A stretch of 64,000 nt of DNA from a phage. Within the stretch, counting starts at the first letter, position 1. Each line of letters opens with the position of its first letter. The DNA is taken from the NCBI GenBank assembly GCA_037574385.1, contig GCA_037574385.1_4529.1; one strand, written 5' to 3'. Under the pieces are notes generated by a model. The model did no database searches and was not told where the DNA came from. It saw only the letters and a list, made by a program, of their open reading frames with translations. Positions 2,246-50,884 of the stretch are shown here, piece by piece. Made by a program: the position numbers and the translations under genes.

Positions 2246-3025
2246 ATGGCAGTAGTAGGAATACCTGGTTGGATTGGAACATCAGCAGTGGCTGAAACAG
2301 GTCAACGTTGGATGTCAGCAGCTTCTAGAGAATTACGTCTAGGGAACCCATCTTGGATGTCACAATTCGCTGGACGTTCAAGAGAAATTATTCACACTCT
2401 TGGAGCAGACCATAACTTTAATGGTCAATGGTTCCGTGACCGCTGTTTTGAAGCCGGTGGCGCTCCTATAGTGTTTAATATCACAGGCAACTTAGTATCA
2501 TATTCTAAAGACGTTCCTTTATTCTTCATGTATGGTGATACTCCTAACGAATATGTTACTTTGAATATTCATGGTGGTGTTCATATGTGGGGCCGAGGTG
2601 GTAATGGTAGCGTAAATGGAAGCCCAGGCACTAATGGCGGCGACGTAATCCAAAATGATATTGGTGGACGACTTCGCATTTGGAACTATGGCGTTATTGC
2701 ATCAGGTGGCGGTGGCGGGGGTGCAGTGTCGTTAAAGAATAGCTGGGATGCGTATGCTACAGCTGGTGGTGGCGGTGGCAGGCCATTTGGTCTTGGCGGC
2801 GGCGGTGTTAATTGGCCTGGTGGCAATGCTAGTTATGACGGTCCAGGTGGTGGCGGTAATACAAGTCAATTTGGTGGCGGCAATGGCGGTGATGCTGGGG
2901 GTGCTGGTGGTGACGGATGGGGCAGTCACTTATCTAGATCTGGGGGTGGTGCTCCTGGTAGAGCAGTATTCGGAAGTTCACCTTCATGGGGTGCTACAGG
3001 CACAATCTACGGCTCCTGGATTTAA
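2246..3025 (+). CDS. 38: tail fibre adhesin gp38 (T2-type receptor-recognising protein with glycine-rich motifs)
   Basis: 259 aa; conserved N-terminus MAVVG.PGWIG...QRWMS...[14 protein letters not shown]; C-terminal half has polyglycine runs (GGGGGG) separating short variable segments, as in T2/T6 gp38. Confidence 0.9.
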
Positions 3026-3730: not shown

Positions 3731-4003
3731 TTAGTTGTTAGAATACATCGTCAAATGGCGATAAATATTTTCAAAACCTTCATTGAATTCACTAATCAGT
3801 GTTTTCTTTTCTTCGGCAGTTAAATTTGTAATTAGTTTTCTGAACGAATTCTGATTTAGCTGCCGACCATCTTTTTTAATTCCAATCTCATTCAAGAATC
3901 CGATGAAATTTGCTCGGTCTTCAACAATATCTTCCCTAGAGAATTTAATCAAAATAGAAGCAATAGTAATAATTTCACGTACGATTTCAATGTCTTTATT
4001 CAT
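3731..4003 (-). CDS. asiA: anti-sigma70 factor AsiA
   Basis: 90 aa, MNK.I..VREIIT.ASILIKFSREDIVE.RANFI.FLNEIG...NQNSFRK...EFNEGFE matches T4 AsiA. Confidence 0.9.
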   Translation of the reverse strand: MNKDIEIVREIITIASILIKFSREDIVEDRANFIGFLNEIGIKKDGRQLNQNSFRKLITNLTAEEKKTLISEFNEGFENIYRHLTMYSNN

Positions 4004-17580: not shown

Positions 17581-18009
17581 TTATTCCTTAAAATGTGTTT
17601 TCAACATTTGATACAAAGACCATGCCTGGTCGTTATTTTCGATAGTAATCGTCATCACCGGAAATTCGGTCAATTCATCAAGTTCTTCAGAGTCTTGCTC
17701 TTCAGACGCTTGATATGGATTTCCAACTTCATCAAAAAACTCTGCTTCACTAGTAGAGAGCCAGATAAAGTTTTCATCAAGAATATCACCACCAGTTGCG
17801 TATCCAACCATGCCAGTAGATGTCACAATTTTAGTAGGTCGACCAAGATGGTCAACATCTAATACTTTAAATGGTTCCATGCCAAGACGTCGTGCATAAA
17901 TCCCATTATCAGTGTGGTTTTTAATAAACTCTTCTTGGACACGTTTATCTTTAAATTGGTACCATGAGTTAACGCGGAATTTATTAGCCATTAGTAAGTT
18001 TCCTTCCAA
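17581..18009 (-). CDS. hypothetical early protein (142 aa)
   Basis: ORF in operon orientation. Confidence 0.5.
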
Positions 18010-26269: not shown

Positions 26270-26271
26270 AC

Positions 26272-26553
26272 TTACAATTTAGCAGCTTGGACTGCTTTAT
26301 TGGCTTCAGTCATTTTAGCTAGATTTTCAGCAGTAGGATTAGCAATGTATTCGGCTGTAGCTTGAGCAAAAACATTATGAGTTTCGATTACATTTTTAGC
26401 ATTTTCAGTATTCATATCAATTTCTTGTTTAGATAAATTTTTTAGTTGATTGGCTAAGAGTTCTACAAAGATTTCAACATTAGCGTTTTCAATTATAGCA
26501 TTAATATGCTTCTTACGAGCTTTCTTAAGCTGACGTTTATTTAAACGAGACAT
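26272..26553 (-). CDS. hypothetical protein (93 aa)
   Basis: ORF between 56 and soc. Confidence 0.5.
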   Translation of the reverse strand: MSRLNKRQLKKARKKHINAIIENANVEIFVELLANQLKNLSKQEIDMNTENAKNVIETHNVFAQATAEYIANPTAENLAKMTEANKAVQAAKL

Positions 26554-27089
26554 TAATAACCTCGGTCCTGACGAGCAAAGTTCTCGGCGTTTTTCAGGTA
26601 ATACAGTTTAAAGATTTCTTCTGCAGTCAGTCCAAGGCCATGGAACATATTCAGAACAAAGTGGAGGATATCAATCATTTCGAATTTAATTTCGAGCTGG
26701 TCTTCAGGAGACAACTCATCAATACGACGATTACGGAATTCAGCATGTTGTACTTTCCAAGGCTTCCATACACTGCTGGCAGCTTTTTCACCATTGCTCA
26801 TACCACCAAGTGAAGTCAGCAGTTCACGGAATTCATCATCAATATAATCTTTCTGATTACGCAGCCAATCAACAACATCGCCAGCAGTGGCCAATTCATC
26901 AGGATGTTTGTTATGTTCAGGCTTGTCATTTGCCAGACGAACCTGTAAAGATTTCTGCATATCAAGCATAACTTGCAGTGGGTCTTTATCTTCGTGAATC
27001 AGAGCATTAAAATAAGCTTCTTCTGCTTTATCAACACCAGAAATAAGTTGTGAACATTCGTTAAAGTGTGCCATTATTTTTCCTTTCAA
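26553..27089 (-). CDS. 56: dCTPase/dUTPase gp56 (MazG-like); probable start at MAHFNEC (~27074)
   Basis: ...MAHFNEC..LI.GVDKA......DPLQVMLDMQ..LQ.RLAN......DVV.W.R.QKD.IDDEFRELLTSLG...EIFKLYYLKN.ENFARQDRGY matches T4 gp56. Confidence 0.85.
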   Translation of the reverse strand: MKGKIMAHFNECSQLISGVDKAEEAYFNALIHEDKDPLQVMLDMQKSLQVRLANDKPEHNKHPDELATAGDVVDWLRNQKDYIDDEFRELLTSLGGMSNGEKAASSVWKPWKVQHAEFRNRRIDELSPEDQLEIKFEMIDILHFVLNMFHGLGLTAEEIFKLYYLKNAENFARQDRGY

Positions 27090-27163
27090 TTCAGTAATAA
27101 GTGAGTTAATTCTAACATTAATTTTATAAAGCGTAATAAATAATAGGTAACTAAGGAGATATT

Positions 27164-27361
27164 ATGTTTAAACTTCCATCGTTAATCAACGCTATTAAAG
27201 GCAATAAAAAGAAAACTGCTATCGCTGCAATAGTTGTAGGCGGCATTATTTCATGGAACTTCGGGATTGCACCATTGTTAGTTGCCCATGGTGTTATAGT
27301 TCCTTCTGTTCCATTGGATACTGTAGTTGATTTGGCCTTTGCTATTATAGGGCTTGTTTAA
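27164..27361 (+). CDS. small membrane protein (65 aa), lone plus-strand gene between 56 and 61
   Basis: AGGAG 6 nt upstream of ATG; KKK then hydrophobic TM stretch; only plus-strand ORF with a good RBS in this early region. Confidence 0.45.
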   Translation: MFKLPSLINAIKGNKKKTAIAAIVVGGIISWNFGIAPLLVAHGVIVPSVPLDTVVDLAFAIIGLV

Positions 27362-28380
27362 ATCTTCGAATAACGAGATAATCTCATTTTAGCATGCAAC
27401 CCACTTGAAATATTCTGTTTCATATATTCTAAAATTTCTTGTGGTGTTGCATTTTCTTTCATTACCATATCATTCACATCCTTTGATCTCCATGGAGCTC
27501 TATCCCAGAACATAACACGTTCGCCTGCATCTACTAATCGCTTCATACGAGCTATAGTATCCGGATGCCTAGGTTCATTATCCATTACCCATACCCGACG
27601 TTCTTTAAATGGTACCACATCTAAATCTATTGAGCCGCCTGTAATAGCGATTGCATTGGGTATGAATAAACTATCAATAGGGCCTTCCATTACCCAGACG
27701 TCTCCTTCCTTAACACGTTCAACACCATAAATTTTTGTTGCAGACTCAAACGCTTTAATAGTGATATATTTCTGAGGAGCATCTTTACGAAGTGCACGTC
27801 CTTGGAATGACTCGGCCTTCCCGTCTTTATTAAAAATAGGAATCACTAAACGTGGTTCAGGAATCTCTTTCTTATACGTACCAGGTTGAATTTTGTTAAC
27901 CAATTTAGGCCATTCTAATGTGAACCATAATCTGTTCCACGATTCTTTAGGAATACACCGAGACTTAACATATTTCACAATAGGATGCTCTTCAGGCAGC
28001 TTGTCCAGACGAGAACAAGACGGCAAAGAATTTATAGTCTTTTTCTCCGGTTCTGGTTTATGTTCAGGAACCTTTTCAATCTTTGGTTCCATTCTAGCTT
28101 TTTCTTTACGAACTTCCATTAGATATTCACGATAAAGATCTTCGTCATACTCTTTTAAGTATCCGGAAATTGTATTATGATATTGACAGTTATAGCAATG
28201 CACATTACCTGGAGTACCGCCATAATACCATCCGCGAGCTTTCATTGCATCTGTCTGAGAGTCGCCACAAACTGGACAACGAAACGTTAATTTAAATGTG
28301 CTTGAATTATTGATTTGTCTAAAACGAGGTAGGTGAGAAAACGCACGATAAGCAAATTCATTATCTATCCATTCAGCCAT
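27358..28380 (-). CDS. 61: DNA primase gp61
   Basis: 340 aa; N-terminal zinc ribbon CPVCGDS...CYNC and Toprim region; matches T4 gp61. Confidence 0.9.
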   Translation of the reverse strand: MAEWIDNEFAYRAFSHLPRFRQINNSSTFKLTFRCPVCGDSQTDAMKARGWYYGGTPGNVHCYNCQYHNTISGYLKEYDEDLYREYLMEVRKEKARMEPKIEKVPEHKPEPEKKTINSLPSCSRLDKLPEEHPIVKYVKSRCIPKESWNRLWFTLEWPKLVNKIQPGTYKKEIPEPRLVIPIFNKDGKAESFQGRALRKDAPQKYITIKAFESATKIYGVERVKEGDVWVMEGPIDSLFIPNAIAITGGSIDLDVVPFKERRVWVMDNEPRHPDTIARMKRLVDAGERVMFWDRAPWRSKDVNDMVMKENATPQEILEYMKQNISSGLHAKMRLSRYSKI

Positions 28381-35493: not shown

Positions 35494-36393
35494 TTATTCC
35501 TCGATTACGACATCTTCGTATTTAGGTATATTATACGGTGAAGAAATTAAAGCATTAAAGTAGATGAACTCACCAAGACCTGGATGGAATACTTCTTCAG
35601 GATTTTCGAAATATTGAATCTTCGGACGTCCTTTAAGAATTTGATAGTACTCAGTTTTAGTTGGTTTAAAAATTCGAATCAGCGCTTCTTCAGGGTACTT
35701 ATTTCTGTCGAAGCTAATATTTGGATCTGTTATATAAAGCGGTTGGCCTAATTGAATTGCACATTCAACCACTTGTTCAAAACGATAGCACGGGTCACTA
35801 ATTCGAAATGGATGAAAAATACCATCTAGATGAATAGGAGCCAAATCACCTACAAGACGCTGCATGATGGAAGGACGTATAACTTTCTGCGTTACGATAA
35901 TCTTATTACCATCTGCACCTGCGTTAACCAGCACTTCCTTTTGACGTTCATTCAACACAGTAGTTTGAAGTGAACGATTAACCGACAACATATCGGTTTT
36001 TAAGAATTCATCAATATAAAAGCGTGGTTTATTAGGGTCTGTAGTGATATTGAAATTGAATTCCACATCAAAAGCGCCATCATATCCAGTGATATCTGTG
36101 ATTAGAAAATCACAATCATAATAAGCAATTAATGAATCAACCACAAATTCATTTTCAGACCAGAAATATTTACGAGTGTTATACGCGTTATCTTTATACC
36201 ATAATGGAACAAACTTAAATTCCGGGAAAAGACGTTCACATTCTTTAATATCAGATGCATTACGTGGATATGTAATCACATCACCCGGATTAGCACGGTG
36301 CAAATGAAGTTGGAAGTTGCCATCCTTAAGGATAGCATACTGTCCAGTTTCATAAGACCGCATACTCAAGATTGGTACGCGGAAAATAGCCAT
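35494..36393 (-). CDS. hypothetical protein (299 aa) at the position of T4 beta-gt; candidate transferase
   Basis: No motif recognised; placed between uvsX and the hydroxymethylase where T4 encodes beta-glucosyltransferase. Confidence 0.5.
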   Translation of the reverse strand: MAIFRVPILSMRSYETGQYAILKDGNFQLHLHRANPGDVITYPRNASDIKECERLFPEFKFVPLWYKDNAYNTRKYFWSENEFVVDSLIAYYDCDFLITDITGYDGAFDVEFNFNITTDPNKPRFYIDEFLKTDMLSVNRSLQTTVLNERQKEVLVNAGADGNKIIVTQKVIRPSIMQRLVGDLAPIHLDGIFHPFRISDPCYRFEQVVECAIQLGQPLYITDPNISFDRNKYPEEALIRIFKPTKTEYYQILKGRPKIQYFENPEEVFHPGLGEFIYFNALISSPYNIPKYEDVVIEE

Positions 36394-37109
36394 TAGTCAA
36401 GGAATCCTTTAACATAATCAAAATCACGTTCAAACACATGGGCACTTACCATGGTATGAGTATAATCACCAACTTCTACACCGCATTCGTTAGCGATATA
36501 ATGAAGTAATTTTCCTTGGAGATAAAAATCCAACTGCATAACAACAGCACAGTTCTGAGAACGCATATGGCAGTGCGTATAAAGCTTACCATCACGAATA
36601 TAATAAGTAACTGAGTCAGTACATGGATATTCAAGCGTTTCGTCTGAATCAAGCAAAGCCTGATCAGAACTTTCTAGAATTTGGAACACAACTCTTCGGG
36701 AGTTAGGCTTCTCTTTAAGTTCTTTTAGAAGAGCTGGTAATTGGGCCGCAATGCGAGGACCATAGAAAGTGTTGAAGTTCGCCGGCAAAACATCTGATTT
36801 TGGTTTAGAAATAAATTTAGCGACATTAGGATATGCCTTAAACGCTTCTTCTGCGTTGGTACCACCAGAAATCATAAACTTCCAGAAGTCTTCGGCATAT
36901 TCATAAGAGATGCGGTTAATACGTGGGTCGGTCATTTTGAATGATGATGGAGTGTCAACAACTACTGTCATAGACCCAATTTCATTACAACGTCCAATAC
37001 GAGAATCAGTTACGAATTCCGGGTTTTCTAAAATTTCACGATTGACTGCTTTAAATGCGGTTTGAAAATCTGCGGCTTTGATATATTTCATTGTGTTATG
37101 TTTTCCCAT
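36393..37109 (-). CDS. thymidylate-synthase-family pyrimidine nucleotide hydroxymethylase (divergent gp42-like)
   Basis: 238 aa; SRRVVFQILES, EYPCTDSVTYYIRDGKL and VSAHVFERDF align with TS / dCMP-hydroxymethylase motifs (catalytic Cys in PCT). Confidence 0.6.
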   Translation of the reverse strand: MGKHNTMKYIKAADFQTAFKAVNREILENPEFVTDSRIGRCNEIGSMTVVVDTPSSFKMTDPRINRISYEYAEDFWKFMISGGTNAEEAFKAYPNVAKFISKPKSDVLPANFNTFYGPRIAAQLPALLKELKEKPNSRRVVFQILESSDQALLDSDETLEYPCTDSVTYYIRDGKLYTHCHMRSQNCAVVMQLDFYLQGKLLHYIANECGVEVGDYTHTMVSAHVFERDFDYVKGFLD

Positions 37110-37151
37110 GTTTACCTCAATACAATTTATTATATACTCAATTCGTAAAGC

Positions 37152-37391
37152 TTATTTGAATTTCTTGACAATGTTGATATAACGTAAAGCTTCAGCATCG
37201 ATACTTCCAAGGACACTATGAAGAAATGCATCAGCGTAGTATTCCAATTGAATAGGTTCTTTAATCACTTTAGCCGCTTTGGTTTCAAACAGGCCCATCA
37301 GGGCCTTTTTAAGAATTTGTTCGTTGCTGTTAATTTTCGTAGTCAAAATCTCTTCATTAAGTTGGTGGTTAAAAGTTTTTCTAGAAATCAT
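37152..37391 (-). CDS. hypothetical protein (79 aa)
   Basis: ORF within the cassette. Confidence 0.45.
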   Translation of the reverse strand: MISRKTFNHQLNEEILTTKINSNEQILKKALMGLFETKAAKVIKEPIQLEYYADAFLHSVLGSIDAEALRYINIVKKFK

Positions 37392-38563
37392 TCCGGGTAC
37401 CTCAAAGCGTCATCAGAGTTAGTTATATCAATAATAGATATAGAGTTTTCTGCTAACCCATTTTTAGATAATTGACGTTTATAATATCTTTCACAATATG
37501 TACACGTTGACCCACAGATTTCATTAGCACAATCAAAATCAGGATGTCTGAACCACCTTTTTTCTAAAAAGCCATCTAACAAAGAGGTTTCAATATTTAC
37601 TGTATGTGAAAACTCAGTCTCATTTTCAAGAGTGAAAATAGTCTCTAAAGGCTTCCACAGTTCTAACAAATTACCTTCAAACTTTTCAGAAGCGTATGCT
37701 TCAAGAACTTTCAAAATGTAGTCTGTGCTACCTGTACGTCCTGAAACTTTGAATTGAGTGATACCAATATCATTATAAAGTTTCAAATCTTGAGGACGAA
37801 CAAAACGAGTTCTCAACCAGTTAAATGGGTCTGTATCACGAGCTTTAATACAGTGCTGCATTGGATATCCATTTAAGGATTTAGCATCATCAGCTGTAAC
37901 ATCAGTACTATGGAAAATATAGCAAGAGTCACGATAGCTACAATGTGTTGTATACCCTTTACCAGCATTAGAACAGAACTCATTTACAAGAACTTCAAAT
38001 ATTATATTGTTCTTATTGCAAAACTCTGCTGCACGCTTCAGGAAAGAAACTGAACGGTTCTTATGAATTCCACAGCAGACCTTTTTGATATTATATTGGT
38101 CATGCAAGTATTTGATTTGAGTTACGGCATCGACATGTAGAATTGTTGAAACTTCAATCTCAATATCTTTATTGACTTCACGAACAATTTCCATAACAAC
38201 AGGGTTAGCGATAGTAATACGCCATACGCCTATTGACCAAAGATACTGAACATAATCCTGAATAGCTTTCTTCTTCCACTCAACTAGTTCTCTTTTTGAA
38301 CCAGGATTTATCGTGTTGAGTGTATAGTTAAAGCAAATACCTAATTCGTTACAACGTTTAACGTAGTCTTCTAACATCTTTTTGTCAACGTCAGGAAGCC
38401 TAAAATCAGGTCTGGCTGCTACAAAAGCCATTTCTCTTGTAGAGCCATATACTTCGTTTATCAAGCTATTAGGATAGGTTTTATTGAGCTCTACGATTTT
38501 ATCAAGAAGAGCTAAATCAAAATTCGTTCCGATTTTAAAAGTATTCATTTTTTTGCATCTCAC
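37388..38563 (-). CDS. Cys-rich hypothetical protein (391 aa), possibly metal/Fe-S binding
   Basis: Several conserved-looking Cys; C-terminal C-x4-C-x3-C-x2-C (CANEICGSTCTYC). No family assignable by eye. Confidence 0.5.
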   Translation of the reverse strand: MRCKKMNTFKIGTNFDLALLDKIVELNKTYPNSLINEVYGSTREMAFVAARPDFRLPDVDKKMLEDYVKRCNELGICFNYTLNTINPGSKRELVEWKKKAIQDYVQYLWSIGVWRITIANPVVMEIVREVNKDIEIEVSTILHVDAVTQIKYLHDQYNIKKVCCGIHKNRSVSFLKRAAEFCNKNNIIFEVLVNEFCSNAGKGYTTHCSYRDSCYIFHSTDVTADDAKSLNGYPMQHCIKARDTDPFNWLRTRFVRPQDLKLYNDIGITQFKVSGRTGSTDYILKVLEAYASEKFEGNLLELWKPLETIFTLENETEFSHTVNIETSLLDGFLEKRWFRHPDFDCANEICGSTCTYCERYYKRQLSKNGLAENSISIIDITNSDDALRYPE

Positions 38564-38604
38564 GTTAATTGATGCGATGGTTTTTGCAGGTCTTACTTAA
38601 ATTA

Positions 38605-39006
38605 TTATAGATTCGGTTTATATGATTTAAATGTTTCGAATTCGCCTTTATTCATAAGAGCTTTGAATTCGTCAGGACGCATAGCTTTGTCGTCGATAAT
38701 CCAATCATATACTGGTTTATGTGTTAGCAAATTATGGTACTTCAAGCCAATGTTTGCCAAGTTCTGAATCAGACTTGGGAGAATGTCAATTGCTATACGT
38801 CCAGGACCTACTGACTTCATACCACGAGCAGTGTAAAGCGTTATGGTATGCCCTGCATCATACAGGGCATTAATGGCAGACACCATTTCGACGTCTGGTT
38901 TGAAGTTCACGTAATCGCGATTGTTATTCCATTCTGTGATGCAATCATCGACATCAAAACAAAGATTAAGCATGTTTTCTACACGGTGCATTAGATTTGT
39001 TCCCAT
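38605..39006 (-). CDS. small HAD-superfamily phosphatase
   Basis: 133 aa; motif I FDVDDCIT near N-terminus; later T/S and K/D motifs consistent with a capless HAD phosphatase. Confidence 0.55.
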   Translation of the reverse strand: MGTNLMHRVENMLNLCFDVDDCITEWNNNRDYVNFKPDVEMVSAINALYDAGHTITLYTARGMKSVGPGRIAIDILPSLIQNLANIGLKYHNLLTHKPVYDWIIDDKAMRPDEFKALMNKGEFETFKSYKPNL

Positions 39007-40676
39007 TGATGAGTGATATCGCCACCGATTGGACGATAAGAAACACCAGTTTCTTTATCAGTTAGTACCCATTTACCAGGATTTTTTGTAATCAGAGTAG
39101 CCGTTACAGGTTCTGCTACGTCATAACTAATAGAGCCGTCTTGAAGTACACGGCCCATGTTACGTAATTGCTTAGTTAGAAGTTCCATACCTTTATAATA
39201 TGCGGCTACCGCTTTAAGTGGATTATTCTTGAAATAACCACCTAATGCAATCCAGATAATTGCCACTGCCAAATGATGATACTCGTTAAACGAACTCATC
39301 TTTCCATATTTGTAAACTAATGGATTGATGTTAATAGTCACATTACAAGTTGTTTCATCAATAATAAACTGGCCCCAGGTCGGATTAGCGTTGAATTCAT
39401 CATAACCTGAAACAGCATAAAGCACTTTAGCTTCATCATACAATTTTGGCCCGTAAATCTTGGTTTCACCAAAATATCCACGAGGGTCGATAAACTTGAC
39501 TTCGCCGTTATCAGTAATCATAGTATTACTGAAGTTCGGGTCACCGTGAATAACAGAGTACTGTCCCTGAGAACGGTTATGATAACGAATAAGGTGTTCT
39601 AAAGCTTGTTTCAGCATTGGCTTCAGACGTCCAATCTTAGTGTAGTTCACGTGTGTGATTTTACCAAATGAATCAATCAATGGCTGAATGCTTTCACAAC
39701 GATCAATAACTTTCGTATAGAACTCTTTAGTGAAATCACGACGAACAGTTTCAGGACTTACAAAATAAATGTCTGTGTTAAATTTCAGTGCATCTAAAAT
39801 TGCATCAATAATTTGTGGACGAGCAAGACTTGATTTGGATTTAATATATTCAAATGCTGGCTTACCTTTAATGCGTTCCATTTCAAAGTTATTTTCATTA
39901 ACAGAAACTAACTGAGGAACTGAATCTGATTTCACTTTCAAATACCATGAAATCTCATCTTTTTGAAGAGCTCGACCTTGTTCAGTTAATGCGAATTTAG
40001 TTACAGTTTCTTCACCAATTTCAACCGCATTAAAACTACGATTAAGTTCACGAACTTCATGAGCTTTTTCAAGTTTAGGCATATCACCAAGGTCGATGAT
40101 ATTCATAAGCTCTGATTTATTGAATGCGCCGCTGTAAAGGAATTCTACAAAATCACGTCCTTTGCAGTATTCGTGAATTTCCTCATCAGTAGAACCCATG
40201 TAGAATTCCCAGTCTTTGAACTGATAAATTCCTACAACATTACCGCCTGTTGCACCTACATTAGTGATATTTTCACCATCGAAATTATATCGACATTCAT
40301 CACCTTTAACATAGATTGCGTTAACATTCCAAGACCATGAACCAAAATCAGGAATAATATCACACCAGTTAACAACTACGTTATGGCCGTCTAAATCTTT
40401 GTGTAATTTAGCAAGAGCATAAGCAGAACCATACGCTTCATCAACTGTACGAATAGTCACATTGAACCCTTCTTGCTCACAATAAGCTCGAACAGTTTCA
40501 GCAAATTTTGAATGAACTACTACAATAATTTCATCTGCGCCAAGGTCAGAATAAATTGTATACAAATTGCTCAGAATAGTGTCTTGTTTATAGTTCACAA
40601 GAACTTTTGGAATATGGTGAGTAATTGGATATAAACGAGTTGCCAATCCAGCACCAAGAATAACAGCTTTTTTCAT
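38991..40676 (-). CDS. bifunctional sugar-1-phosphate nucleotidyltransferase / APH-type anomeric sugar kinase
   Basis: 561 aa; N-terminal ILGAGLATRLYP (G-x-G-x-R nucleotidyltransferase signature); C-terminal HGDPNFSNTMI...KFIDPRG matching the APH/choline-kinase catalytic loop. Confidence 0.65.
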   Translation of the reverse strand: MKKAVILGAGLATRLYPITHHIPKVLVNYKQDTILSNLYTIYSDLGADEIIVVVHSKFAETVRAYCEQEGFNVTIRTVDEAYGSAYALAKLHKDLDGHNVVVNWCDIIPDFGSWSWNVNAIYVKGDECRYNFDGENITNVGATGGNVVGIYQFKDWEFYMGSTDEEIHEYCKGRDFVEFLYSGAFNKSELMNIIDLGDMPKLEKAHEVRELNRSFNAVEIGEETVTKFALTEQGRALQKDEISWYLKVKSDSVPQLVSVNENNFEMERIKGKPAFEYIKSKSSLARPQIIDAILDALKFNTDIYFVSPETVRRDFTKEFYTKVIDRCESIQPLIDSFGKITHVNYTKIGRLKPMLKQALEHLIRYHNRSQGQYSVIHGDPNFSNTMITDNGEVKFIDPRGYFGETKIYGPKLYDEAKVLYAVSGYDEFNANPTWGQFIIDETTCNVTININPLVYKYGKMSSFNEYHHLAVAIIWIALGGYFKNNPLKAVAAYYKGMELLTKQLRNMGRVLQDGSISYDVAEPVTATLITKNPGKWVLTDKETGVSYRPIGGDITHQWEQI

Positions 40677-40713
40677 GTTGAAGTCCTCATTGGTAAGTAG
40701 GTGTATTGTACAC

Positions 40714-40860
40714 TATTCTAGTTAAAGCATTCATACTTTGCCTGTAGACCAATCATAATCCATCCAATTACAAGTGTTGGAATCATTACTGGAGCCGTTA
40801 AGCTCCAGTAGATAGTCATGACAAGCATCAATAGTAAAAGTCCTATTGTTATTGCTTTCA
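40714..40860 (-). CDS. possible small membrane protein (~48 aa, below threshold); positional candidate for Imm-like protein
   Basis: Hand translation MKAITIGLLLLMLVMTIYWSLTAPVMIPTLVIGWIMIGLQAKYECFN; ATG overlaps the upstream stop (ATGA). Confidence 0.35.
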
Positions 40861-41493
40861 TTGTTCGCCTCGTAACATGGCACCTAGTGCACCGCCAGGG
40901 TGGAACTTAAGGAAATCATTAGAGGTAAATCCGCGTTCAGACGAAAGGTTGATAGCGAACGTATCGATAAGCGCTAACAACAATGTAGTGGACATAGTCG
41001 GAGCTAAAGAGTTCTCGTCAACTTCTACCGCGATACCGGTACAGAATGTATAATCAAAAAGAGCTTCGTATTCTTGTGGAATGTCAGGGTTACAATGTAA
41101 CAGAATCTGTTTAACCTGAGGACGAATCATACGAAGATGTTTAGCAACACCTATCATTTCTTCAGTCTTACCAGAACGACTGATGTGAACTAATACATCA
41201 TTAGGTGCAATGAATCCTGCATCACCGTGAGAATAATGCCCAGTGTTCAAATACATGCTAGGAATACCTAGTGAAGCAAAAGTCTCGGAAGCTTTAGTTG
41301 CGATATTAGCGTTCTTACCAACACCTGTAATAATTACACGACTTTCATAATTACTCAGTCCTGGGCGTCGAAGAGTTTCTAGAATAGCATTATAACGAGC
41401 AGGGTTTTGACTAATTACTTTGGCCATAGCGGCCAAAGAAGAAGCTTGTTTTATGATTGCGTCAATAGCGATAGTGATTGGTGTAGTTTTCAT
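40858..41493 (-). CDS. SIS-domain sugar-phosphate isomerase, D-arabinose-5-phosphate isomerase (KdsD/GutQ)-like
   Basis: 211 aa; ITGVGKNANIATKASETFASLGIPS matches the SIS phosphosugar-binding motif; single SIS domain without CBS domains. Confidence 0.65.
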   Translation of the reverse strand: MKTTPITIAIDAIIKQASSLAAMAKVISQNPARYNAILETLRRPGLSNYESRVIITGVGKNANIATKASETFASLGIPSMYLNTGHYSHGDAGFIAPNDVLVHISRSGKTEEMIGVAKHLRMIRPQVKQILLHCNPDIPQEYEALFDYTFCTGIAVEVDENSLAPTMSTTLLLALIDTFAINLSSERGFTSNDFLKFHPGGALGAMLRGEQ

Positions 41494-41533
41494 ATTTCTC
41501 TCATTTAATTAGTTTACCGTCCTTGGCATTATA

Positions 41534-44245
41534 TCAAAAATCGAACATATCGAACAGAGATGCTTTCTTCTCGTAATCGAGTTTCGCTGCTGATGTGAAT
41601 CCTTCAAGTGGTTTAATAAATGTCTTCTCAAGGAGAACCGTGTAGTCCATCCAATGAAGTACGTCGTCTTTAATTAAATCTGTGATTTCAGTACCAGAAG
41701 GCCATGCGATACATTTATCACCGAATGGGTTTCCTTCACGTAAAGGCAGAACATATACTTTTTCACCTTCTACAACTTGTGGTGCATCAATATTACCTTT
41801 GATAGCCCGGTTATACGTTAGAATTCCACGAATATGGAACGGGCATTTGGGACCCGGGAATCCACCTACATCATATTTAGCAATGTTATTCGCAGAAGAT
41901 ACCGACGCGATGCTAATATAATTCAATTGACGGAATTCTTTTTCAAACTCTTTAAAATACTCTTGTAATGATTCTTCACCTTCCTGAAGCATACGACGAA
42001 TACATTCCTTAAGAGCTTTCTGTACCGCTTTAGGAGTTGAAGATTTCTGTGTTTCGAGACCCATGATTTTGAGTTTAGGCTTAGCGTAACGAGTACCTTC
42101 CATATCCCACACGTTTAATGCATAACGTTTCTTACCAGTCCAAAATCCGCCAATACCTTTAGAACCGAGCGGAGGACCAGCGATAGCTTCTCGGTCCATG
42201 AACATCAAATGTTGCTTATTATTCATGTATTCGCACATTTCACGGAAACCTCTATCAATAGCAGGTTCCATACGTTCACGAGCGAACTTATCTAAGAAGT
42301 CTACCCAATGGTTGGTATCACGGAATTTAGATTCACCAACCTTATCAATAATTTTATCTGCAGATACATAAATGGAGTCTGTATCACCGTATAGAACGAA
42401 AGCTTCACCTTCTGTACCACAAACTTCGTTCAGATATTCATTAACTTTACGTTCAATCCACTGTAAAGCCATTTGCCCGAATGTTGTGATTGCAGTAGCA
42501 TTACGCAAATCATAATAACGGAACCAAACGTTGCCAAGTGCACCATAAAGTGAGTTGATAAGCAATTTACGGTTAATCTGTGCAGTCATACCTGCAACTT
42601 CAGTACGTTGAGCTCTAAACAACATTTCATTAAGAGATTTAGCAGACAACTTTTTAATCTTTTCTTTAATCTCGTCAGTGAAGTCGAAACGATAATCAAC
42701 ATCTAATGGTTCGTCAACAGAAAGATTAGGATTATGCAATGCCTCTTTAATTATTTCACCATTACGTTGAGCTGCAAGCATGTAACCTTTATGTTCTTTA
42801 CGCTGATTAAAGACCTTAGTGATTTCAGTTGGAACTACACCATCACGGTCTTTATAATACATCATGCCATTAGGAGAGCAACTGTACACATCTGAAGGAC
42901 GTTCAGCAACAGCGTTAATATAATCATGTAATGGAGCTACTTTAAACGTTCCTGCTATTGTTTCTGGGCTAATATTCACTTGGCGAATAATACTTGGATA
43001 CAGAGATGTAAGGTCGAAACTCATTACATATTTGTATCGATTTGGAATAGGTTCCTTAACAAAAGCGCCTGGGTAAGGTTGAACCGGGTGAGAACGACCT
43101 TGTGGAATCACCTTGTTCTGCTCTTTAAGGCTATTAAAAATAATAGCATCCCATGTTTTAATTGGGCTAAACACAGATTGAATCTGTATCTTAGCATAAT
43201 AACCCATGTCCAAACTCAAGTTGATGAACTGACGCTTAGCATCAATTTGCAATACACGATACACGTCGATAATGTTATAAGAAATATATCGTTGGTGATT
43301 GCTTTCACGAAGCTTAGAAATAGGGCCGTCATATTTCAGTTTACCAACGTTCAATTCAAATTCTGAAATGTAATCCAGAGAATACGACGGTTGATTGGTA
43401 AAAGAGAATTTTTTGTAAAGGTCAATGTAATCAAGAACAGAGATACCGAACAATGTAATGATTTCACGAGAACCATACATGTTTTCGATAACTTTAACAT
43501 GAGTTTTACGATGTGGTGATAAACGTTTCGCAGTAGATTCGCCAAAAATATTCTTGATTCGGTTATACACATATGGAATATCAAATGACTCAACGTTCCA
43601 TCCGGTTAAAATGACAGGAGTTTTCTGTTGCCAGAAGTTGAGATATTCCATCAACAATTCTTTTTCGTTATCGAACGGCATATAAATGATTTTATCAATA
43701 ATTTCGGATGGAACTTCATCACCACCTTGTTCTTGAAGCTTAGCAGCGATTTCAATAGACCATTCTTCTACATTACCATATGGAGAATTCAATAGATCAA
43801 ATACGTAAAACCTGTCGTCAATTGAGTCATAATGAGTGATAGCATCAATCGGATGTTTTGCTTGTGACGGCTCAGGGAACCCATCCGGAGATGTTACTTC
43901 GATGTCGAAGTTAGCCACACGAATTTTTGTATGGTCGTATTTGATTTCATAGTTATAAGTGTCAGACAAATACGCCAATTTGAAATCGTCCATGCCAAGT
44001 GCTTCAAGTCCGATATCTTCCATGCGTTTAATCCATTGGGAGGCATCACGCATATTAGCGAACAACTTACGAGTACACGACTTACCGTAGATATCGAAAT
44101 ATTTCGTAGCCTGACTTTCTGGACAATGAGCAAACAGTGATGGTTTATATTCTACTTCACGAGTACGTTCACGGCCATTAGAATCGATGTAACGTTCAAA
44201 AATTGAATCACCGATCTGTTCAACCGTTAAGTAAAATTCTTTCAT
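41534..44245 (-). CDS. 43: DNA polymerase gp43 (family B)
   Basis: 903 aa; exonuclease motifs, YGDTDS polymerase motif; N-terminus MKEFYLTVEQIGDSIFERYIDSNGRERTREVEYKPSLFAH... matches my memory of RB69 gp43. Confidence 0.97.
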   Translation of the reverse strand: MKEFYLTVEQIGDSIFERYIDSNGRERTREVEYKPSLFAHCPESQATKYFDIYGKSCTRKLFANMRDASQWIKRMEDIGLEALGMDDFKLAYLSDTYNYEIKYDHTKIRVANFDIEVTSPDGFPEPSQAKHPIDAITHYDSIDDRFYVFDLLNSPYGNVEEWSIEIAAKLQEQGGDEVPSEIIDKIIYMPFDNEKELLMEYLNFWQQKTPVILTGWNVESFDIPYVYNRIKNIFGESTAKRLSPHRKTHVKVIENMYGSREIITLFGISVLDYIDLYKKFSFTNQPSYSLDYISEFELNVGKLKYDGPISKLRESNHQRYISYNIIDVYRVLQIDAKRQFINLSLDMGYYAKIQIQSVFSPIKTWDAIIFNSLKEQNKVIPQGRSHPVQPYPGAFVKEPIPNRYKYVMSFDLTSLYPSIIRQVNISPETIAGTFKVAPLHDYINAVAERPSDVYSCSPNGMMYYKDRDGVVPTEITKVFNQRKEHKGYMLAAQRNGEIIKEALHNPNLSVDEPLDVDYRFDFTDEIKEKIKKLSAKSLNEMLFRAQRTEVAGMTAQINRKLLINSLYGALGNVWFRYYDLRNATAITTFGQMALQWIERKVNEYLNEVCGTEGEAFVLYGDTDSIYVSADKIIDKVGESKFRDTNHWVDFLDKFARERMEPAIDRGFREMCEYMNNKQHLMFMDREAIAGPPLGSKGIGGFWTGKKRYALNVWDMEGTRYAKPKLKIMGLETQKSSTPKAVQKALKECIRRMLQEGEESLQEYFKEFEKEFRQLNYISIASVSSANNIAKYDVGGFPGPKCPFHIRGILTYNRAIKGNIDAPQVVEGEKVYVLPLREGNPFGDKCIAWPSGTEITDLIKDDVLHWMDYTVLLEKTFIKPLEGFTSAAKLDYEKKASLFDMFDF

Positions 44246-49868: not shown

Positions 49869-50884
49869 TGTGTTGCCTCAATATAAAGTTCGTTGGAATA
49901 TTTGACCAGCGCTTCTCTGTCTTCGTCTGAGATATCTGGAATCGCGTCAATATATTCTTTAATGATATCTTGAAGTGATTTAATCTCGATTTCCTGGTCG
50001 TCATCAGATTCAACACTGTTATCAACTTTAGAAACCATACGAAGAGAGTGAACTACTTTTTCAAGTTCAGATTCAAACTTAGTCAACTCTGAATCAATTT
50101 CTGATACTATAACACGTACGGCTAGATTAGTATAATCAGAATAATTGATTTTGCCTTTAAACGGATAAGTGATTCGTCGATGCCATGTCGTTTCATTGGG
50201 AATAAATTCCATACGTTCAACGTCGGTGTCAAATACCCAGAATCCGCGAGGATCATTCTCGTCACCTGCAGTAAGGGTCCATGGTGTCCCAATATATTTG
50301 ACGTTAGCAGCTTCAGAGATTGTGTGGAAGTGGCCGGACCAGACTTGTTTATAGGTCTTTAAGAAATCAGGTTCAAGCCCATGAGACTTCATTCCTTTAT
50401 AGAAATAAAAGCCGTTCAGTTCCCAGTGCCCAACACAATACGCAGCAGAAGAAGTCTTGATATGCTCTAAGATTTCACCTGTATTTTCTTCACACATCCA
50501 TGGAACGATATCAATCAGACATCCGTCAAAATCTACAGTAGTTGGATGTTCATAAATAGTAAAGTTTTCAAATTGAGTTAACAATTCAGAAACAGTGTTA
50601 GGTGTTATTGTATTCTTAAACGCCATGTCATGGTTTCCTATCGTGACATGAACGTGAATGCCTGCCTTAGAAATCATATCAACTATTTCACGATTGAATT
50701 CCATCGTACGATGTGTAATTGCTTTACGGACGTCGAACCAATCACCGTACTGAATCCAAGTTTTAATCCCGTGTTTCTTAGAGTATTCAATTGCTTGACG
50801 AATACCATCACGTTGAATATCTTGGACCCATGGGTCGTCCTGTTTAACGCCGATATGGAAGTCACCTAAATGTAAAATTTTCAT
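49865..50884 (-). CDS. 47: recombination nuclease gp47 (Mre11/SbcD-like); start at MKILHLGDFH
   Basis: Calcineurin-like phosphoesterase motifs (LHLGDFHIG, GNHD, GHFH); track ORF extends 27 nt further upstream (to 50911). Confidence 0.9.
   Translation of the reverse strand: MKILHLGDFHIGVKQDDPWVQDIQRDGIRQAIEYSKKHGIKTWIQYGDWFDVRKAITHRTMEFNREIVDMISKAGIHVHVTIGNHDMAFKNTITPNTVSELLTQFENFTIYEHPTTVDFDGCLIDIVPWMCEENTGEILEHIKTSSAAYCVGHWELNGFYFYKGMKSHGLEPDFLKTYKQVWSGHFHTISEAANVKYIGTPWTLTAGDENDPRGFWVFDTDVERMEFIPNETTWHRRITYPFKGKINYSDYTNLAVRVIVSEIDSELTKFESELEKVVHSLRMVSKVDNSVESDDDQEIEIKSLQDIIKEYIDAIPDISDEDREALVKYSNELYIEATQ

Follow-up and report, generated by a model that had tools for sequence, protein, structure and literature searches.

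The window analysed here, a stretch of 64,000 nucleotides (64 kb) of phage DNA, comes from a Mosigvirus, an RB69-like T-even phage. Over the 2.1 kb around the locus of interest, Shigella phage ESh27 shares 98.3% identity with it, and Shf125875 and many Mosigviruses of E. coli share approximately 97%. Shf125875 is collinear with the whole window, which starts at gene 37 and passes rIIB/rIIA to reach the nrdC region. Between genes 56 and 61 lies a gap of 283 bp (27075..27357), which is filled by a 65-codon open reading frame (ORF) that runs against both of its neighbours (Table 1). The stop codons of the ORF and of the primase gene overlap in the 4-nt TTAA. In the first 80 kb of Shf125875, which hold approximately 155 genes, the homologue of this ORF is the sole plus-strand coding sequence (CDS).

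A first-pass annotation had described the interval as approximately 270 bp long and occupied by a single ORF of 65 residues on the opposite strand, with a good ribosome-binding site and a membrane-protein product, as a lone plus-strand gene embedded in an early operon. The present analysis bears out this description, including the membrane assignment: a single transmembrane segment is predicted from hydropathy, by AlphaFold2 (residues 17–41) and in published work (residues 21–41).

Table 1 Features of the 56–61 interval and its flanking genes, in window coordinates
Feature	Position	Strand	Basis
CDS, 65 amino acids, small membrane protein (predicted), homologue of RB69ORF029w, phrog_2024	27164..27361	+	ATG start; ORF list, profile match
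Shine–Dalgarno sequence AAGGAG, 5 nt before ATG	27153..27158	+	Direct sequence reading
Late-promoter-like box AATAAATA, 21 nt upstream of ATG	27135..27142	+	T4 consensus TATAAATA with A at −13
Gene 56 middle-promoter-like site: MotA-box-like TTACGCTTTA, GCTT, 14-nt spacer, −10 TAGAAT	27109..27136	-	Consensus match only
Gene 56, dCTPase/dUTPase, divergent from the ORF	26553..27074	-	phrog_173, E = 1.6e-44; annotation of relatives
Gene 61, DNA primase, convergent with the ORF	27358..28380	-	phrog_47, E = 1e-101; annotation of relatives

Elsewhere in the window, a minus-strand ORF of 93 amino acids (26272..26553) lies between soc and gene 56, where Shf125875 has soc.1/soc.2. By megablast, this segment (approximately 26270–26503) finds no counterpart in Shf125875, and of the annotated relatives inspected only ESh27 carries it; it has the look of a small swapped cassette. 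The region at approximately 36000–42000 corresponds to 24.7–30.7 kb of Shf125875, in which sugar-metabolism genes are annotated, including those for phosphoheptose isomerase and arabinose-5-phosphate isomerase. Such a cluster is consistent with the arabinosylated cytosine DNA that has been reported for Mosigvirus (PMC13390438).

Conservation across T-even phages and the relation to dam

Length alone lends the ORF no significance, because spurious plus-strand ORFs of similar size (50–80 amino acids) abound in the ORF list of the window. The encoded protein is 94–100% identical to those of other Mosigvirus members. A tblastn search with it recovered 693 phage records, with at least 80% coverage in 686 of them, and a divergent second subtype (approximately 23% identical) occurs in 110 phage records; in total the family counts approximately 800 phage records, spread over eight or more lineages of the Tevenvirinae. 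In pairs with measurable dS, dN/dS is 0.10–0.21 (Nei–Gojobori). Between genera dS is saturated, yet the protein remains 45–55% identical and its length is kept. M1, W31, N32, P37 and G43 are invariant in an alignment of 37 sequences, and K15, P47, V49 and G63 are nearly so. The phrog_2024 profile matches residues 1–65 of the 65-residue window protein (E = 2.1e-27), and the versions from T4, JS98, VR26 and CGG4-1 also match over their full length (E from 1e-25 to 1e-31), so that the profile takes in all four subtypes. Because of this conservation and a dN/dS of 0.1–0.2, we judge with high confidence, from sequence comparison, that the 65-codon ORF is a real gene.

A HMMER profile search of 1.84 billion representative proteins returned two clusters only, and the family therefore appears to be confined to T-even phages. 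Searches with the protein against Pfam, NCBIfam, PADLOC and PDB sequences gave no informative match, and Foldseek comparisons with BFVD and PDB returned family members or noise only. The ORF is already known as a catalogued hypothetical gene: it has been in the databases since the RB69 genome, forms phrog_2024 and is annotated in close relatives as a hypothetical protein ‘similar to RB69ORF029w’ or as a ‘putative transmembrane protein’. We found no mention of RB69ORF029w or of the phrog_2024 gene in the published literature, and nothing that bears on the ORF in work on ribosome profiling or start-site mapping in T4. What is new here is modest: the conservation across T-even phages including T4, the conserved late-promoter-like box and the recognition of dam as a variable neighbour.

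Several public names for members of the family are wrong or untested. CGG41_026 (L029 1301..1525) is called a ‘dCTP pyrophosphatase’, family members in several Klebsiella and E. coli phages (SAKp28, MY02 and UPEC01) carry the label ‘DNA packaging ATPase’, and UniProt applies the name ‘Holin’ to the family member of OE5505, which is of the T4 type.

In T4, the homologue is a protein of 66 amino acids with 55% identity to that of the window, encoded on the plus strand in the 309-bp gap between dam and gene 61, with the same TTAA overlap with the primase stop. It lies at 17738..17938 (+) of NC_000866.4 (L005 4739..4939) and has a strong ribosome-binding site. The dam–61 gap is unannotated in NC_000866.4 and AF158101.6, as it was in the original 1984 sequence entry, and annotation of the gene is also absent in JS98, JS10, IME08 and SP18.

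The plus-strand placement of the gene between 61 and 56, tail to tail with the primase gene, is kept in all of the lineages examined (Mosigvirus, Tequatrovirus, Gaprivervirus, Dhakavirus, Mosugukvirus, Gelderlandvirus and T4-like Klebsiella phages). The junction between the ORF and the primase gene is constant, and the DNA that varies is the stretch from the region upstream of the ORF to gene 56. In that stretch T4 carries dam and fPS-2 carries a homing endonuclease, an insert splits gene 56 in a Klebsiella phage, and Mosigvirus, JS98 and many Tequatroviruses have no insert. T4-like Dam proteins (at least 90% identity) occur in approximately 182 phage records, compared with approximately 690 for the ORF, and many Tequatroviruses lack dam and keep the ORF, in line with the report that only some Tequatroviruses carry dam (PMC13390438).

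The absence of a Dam methyltransferase from the interval, as claimed at first pass, was confirmed: tblastn with T4 Dam detected no homologue, either in the 64 kb of the window (best E = 0.64) or in the complete Shf125875 genome (best E = 0.12), and the annotation of Shf125875 contains no methyltransferase. The search of that whole collinear genome also ruled out a dam that had been relocated elsewhere. On this comparison of genomes, dam is an accessory, variable insertion and the ORF is the constant element. The first-pass annotation had also called an antisense membrane peptide in an early operon unusual for this genome. Because T4 and its relatives share the ORF and dam is variable, we consider that the ORF–61 arrangement goes back to the ancestor of the T-even phages and is no peculiarity of the window genome.

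In Gaprivervirus the ORF has tandem paralogues, each with a separate ribosome-binding site. Those of VR26 (L006 2501..2698 and 2707..2907) are approximately 23% identical and 8 nt apart, and apparently share an operon under a single late-like box. In SP18 (L007 2501..2698 and 2715..2810) the 5′ half of the second copy has been lost, and the second copy is broken in VR20 and RZ. In Tequatrovirus a48 (L009 2440..2608) one base is missing from an A-run (AAGAAAC has become AAAAAC), and the ORF is cut to 41 amino acids; either the gene has truly been lost there or the homopolymer was misread in sequencing. Such occasional decay, in a48 and in the second copies of SP18, VR20 and RZ, indicates that the gene is dispensable, at least in the laboratory, and that the paralogues are redundant.

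Signals for transcription and translation

All early and middle transcripts of T4 have one polarity, and late transcripts alone run either way (PMC2988020); a gene of opposite polarity within an early/middle block is therefore expected to be late. When the 60 nt that precede the ATG in eight lineages are aligned, a single block, TAAATA, is invariant. It sits, in all eight, in a NATAAATA box that ends 13–22 nt before the ATG, and all eight have a GGAG/AGGAGG ribosome-binding element at the equivalent place. The box reads AATAAATA in the window, JS98 and SA20RB, GATAAATA in T4 and PM2, CATAAATA in Gaprivervirus and ATTAAATA in CGG4-1, and that of the Klebsiella type is TATAAATA, exactly the T4 late-promoter consensus. 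This consensus occupies −13 to −6 and is perfect in 32 of the 50 listed T4 sites (PMC2988020). The window box matches it at seven of eight positions; A at −13 is the commonest natural variant (9 of 50 listed T4 late promoters; PMC2988020), and T/A variation at −13 is general among T4-like phages (PMC1524935).

Boxes of this kind are scarce in the window. ATAAATA has six copies on both strands of the 64 kb, compared with approximately 17–21 expected per strand, and is depleted approximately threefold. Three copies in the window are exact TATAAATA, and they lie 19–32 nt ahead of the start codons (ATG) of t, soc and gene 49, all of them known late genes of T4. Besides those of t and the ORF, the remaining plus-strand ATAAATA boxes are GATAAATA at 3760..3767, antisense inside asiA, and CATAAATA at 50551..50558, antisense inside gene 47. 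Neither of these antisense boxes is followed by an ORF with a ribosome-binding site, and they are possible late antisense promoters, judged by their sequence and position. The 2006 scan of RB69 with a hidden Markov model of late promoters (Nolan et al.) lists 31 predicted sites, none of them at the ORF.

The late box abuts a minus-strand middle-promoter-like site of gene 56 (GCTT-N14-TAGAAT, 27132..27109), equivalents of which (GCTT-N13-15-TATAAT) have been annotated by the depositors of SA20RB and fPS-2. Part of the conservation of the box could serve gene 56, and the spacer of approximately 90 bp between gene 56 and the ORF looks, in its sequence, like a back-to-back promoter region. A scan of the locus for sigma-70 promoters and terminators found nothing above shuffled expectation, and neither in the window nor in T4 or JS98 is the ORF followed by a plus-strand hairpin that resembles a terminator. 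On the minus strand of T4 (L005 4754..4773), ATGGCATTAACAAGTGCCAT followed by TAATTTTT makes up a terminator-like hairpin downstream of gene 61 and inside codons 6–12 of the ORF. Neither the window nor JS98 has this hairpin, and a conserved terminator hairpin within the ORF was rejected, as the hairpin occurs only in T4-type sequences. With polarity and promoter-like box taken together, we have good confidence that the ORF is expressed late from a putative gp55-type promoter.

Predicted protein and possible role

All five lysine and arginine residues of the protein fall within residues 1–17. Residues 18–65, including the C-terminal 24, form a hydrophobic stretch in which D52 and D56 alone are charged. 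Trypsin would accordingly yield a single usable peptide (LPSLINAIK) and a hydrophobic fragment of 48 residues. For RB69ORF029w, one transmembrane segment (21–41) and no signal peptide have been predicted (Nolan et al., TMHMM-type prediction; PMC1524935 supplement). AlphaFold2, run with the 37-sequence alignment, gave a model with a mean pLDDT of 84.6 and a pTM of 0.66, in which helices span residues 4–12, 17–41 and 52–62; the last of these is too short to span a bilayer. These predictions give good support to a single-pass membrane protein. Because of the positive-inside rule, we infer that the best reading of the model is a single-pass topology with the N terminus in the cytoplasm and a periplasmic tail of 24 residues.

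An asparagine that has a tryptophan beside it within a membrane helix belongs to a type of residue that drives helix–helix association. We hypothesize that the product is a 62–66-residue inner-membrane protein of the Tevenvirinae, the late transcription of which is most likely driven by its own gp55-type promoter (NATAAATA, 13–22 nt before the ATG). A short, amphipathic and lysine-rich N terminus would remain in the cytoplasm, and a transmembrane helix at approximately residues 17–41 would carry the invariant Trp–Asn pair and the proline. An invariant G-x3-P-x-V turn would then lead into an 11-residue hydrophobic and acidic helix on the periplasmic side. The buried asparagine may mediate intramembrane helix–helix association, either of the protein with itself or with a phage or host membrane partner, and the association could affect an envelope process late in infection, for example the timing or inhibition of lysis or the integrity of the membrane. 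The DNA that separates the ORF promoter from gene 56 in some phages (dam in T4 and homing endonucleases in others) would be inserted there and would not be a counterpart of the ORF. Taken as a whole, this reading of a vertically conserved T-even gene for a late inner-membrane protein that associates within the membrane and acts on a late envelope process is one that we hold to be probable, with some reserve. Our confidence in any specific envelope process is low. A bolder version, in which the protein is a late envelope factor of all T-even phages (a modulator of T/RI lysis inhibition or a viroporin-like oligomer built on the Trp–Asn pair) and its polarity ensures strictly late expression, seems to us conceivable but rather unlikely.

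Other explanations of the interval deny the protein a central place. ORFs of similar length arise often by chance on the plus strand of an AT-rich genome, and the interval could have been kept for minus-strand signals, namely those of the gene 56 promoter and of the terminus of the gene 61 transcript; the middle-promoter-like site and the T4 hairpin do lie within or beside the ORF. But the hairpin is missing from the window and JS98, the frame, length and stop position have been kept despite saturated synonymous sites and with a dN/dS of 0.1–0.2, and the tandem paralogues of Gaprivervirus each have their own ribosome-binding site, all of which makes a chance ORF barely credible. That a lineage-specific ORF took the place of dam in the window phage is almost certainly wrong. 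The first-pass description of the gene as lying ‘where T4 carries dam’ stands as to position, in that dam is between 56 and 61 in T4, and the window interval holds the ORF alone; as a replacement it fails, because T4 carries both genes, and the ORF is found in approximately 180 other dam-carrying relatives and in phages with and without dam. A further possibility is that RNA is the main product, with a late convergent transcript that is antisense to 61 and contributes to shutting off primase and early read-through messages, the peptide being secondary. The overlapping stops of the convergent genes, the lack of a plus-strand terminator-like hairpin after the ORF and the existence in T4 of several sites transcribed on both strands at different times (PMC2988020) all fit this idea. 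An RNA-only role, however, needs neither the purifying selection on amino acids, with its invariant residues, nor the strong Shine–Dalgarno sequence that is kept in every lineage, and we regard it as quite improbable, although an antisense-RNA role could exist alongside that of the protein.

A pore former in the manner of holins or viroporins would accept the protein and narrow its function: late oligomerization through the buried asparagine would depolarize or permeabilize the inner membrane and serve as an auxiliary to lysis timing beside the holin T. The small size, the late-type promoter and the one transmembrane helix with its invariant polar asparagine and tryptophan are in keeping with this, as is the putative name ‘Holin’ on one T4-type database record. 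Among the features by which holins are recognized, small size and at least one transmembrane domain are predicted here (hydropathy; AlphaFold2, 17–41; published segment, 21–41), but a charged hydrophilic C-terminal domain and a location in a lysis cassette are not found. The C terminus is instead hydrophobic. The ORF is also far from t and the endolysin gene e, which in Shf125875 lie at 160.4 kb and 65.0 kb, respectively, and its neighbours are the genes for dCTPase and primase. Moreover, the lineage possesses all of the lysis genes known from T4 (t, e, rI, rIII and pseT.2/.3), and the protein shows no sequence or fold similarity to holin families. We consider a pore former unlikely.

The gene has several implications. 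T4 is among the most thoroughly annotated viruses, yet a 309-bp ‘intergenic’ gap in its curated records holds a gene under clear purifying selection. As the sole gene of late polarity inside the early block, it offers a clean test case for the use of late promoters in early regions, and an envelope role, if established, would add a component to the classic late membrane programme of T-even phages. In practical terms, the outcome is an annotation correction for T4, JS98, JS10 and SP18, with a warning about the wrong public labels ‘holin’, ‘dCTP pyrophosphatase’ and ‘DNA packaging ATPase’.

Several known systems invite comparison. Small holins and pinholins (class II, approximately 70 amino acids) are likewise small membrane proteins with a polar residue in the transmembrane helix, and the ORF product resembles them further in being probably late; it differs in having no charged C-terminal tail, no adjacent endolysin gene and no homology to them, and the canonical T is present in the lineage. 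Type I toxins of the Hok kind are also short hydrophobic proteins from genes overlapped by opposite-strand transcripts, here the read-through from gene 61, but the ORF appears to be a late gene of a lytic phage, without homology to these toxins, and of the type I arrangement it shows only the small hydrophobic ORF and general antisense read-through. Imm and Sp of T4, membrane or periplasmic proteins of superinfection exclusion, are small T-even envelope proteins encoded in the same neighbourhood, a few genes beyond 61. They are early/middle genes on the early strand, whereas the ORF has the opposite polarity, a late-type promoter and no sequence similarity to either. With RB69ORF029w and the phrog_2024 family, by contrast, the window ORF shares position, strand and the stop overlap with the primase gene, and there is no difference between them.
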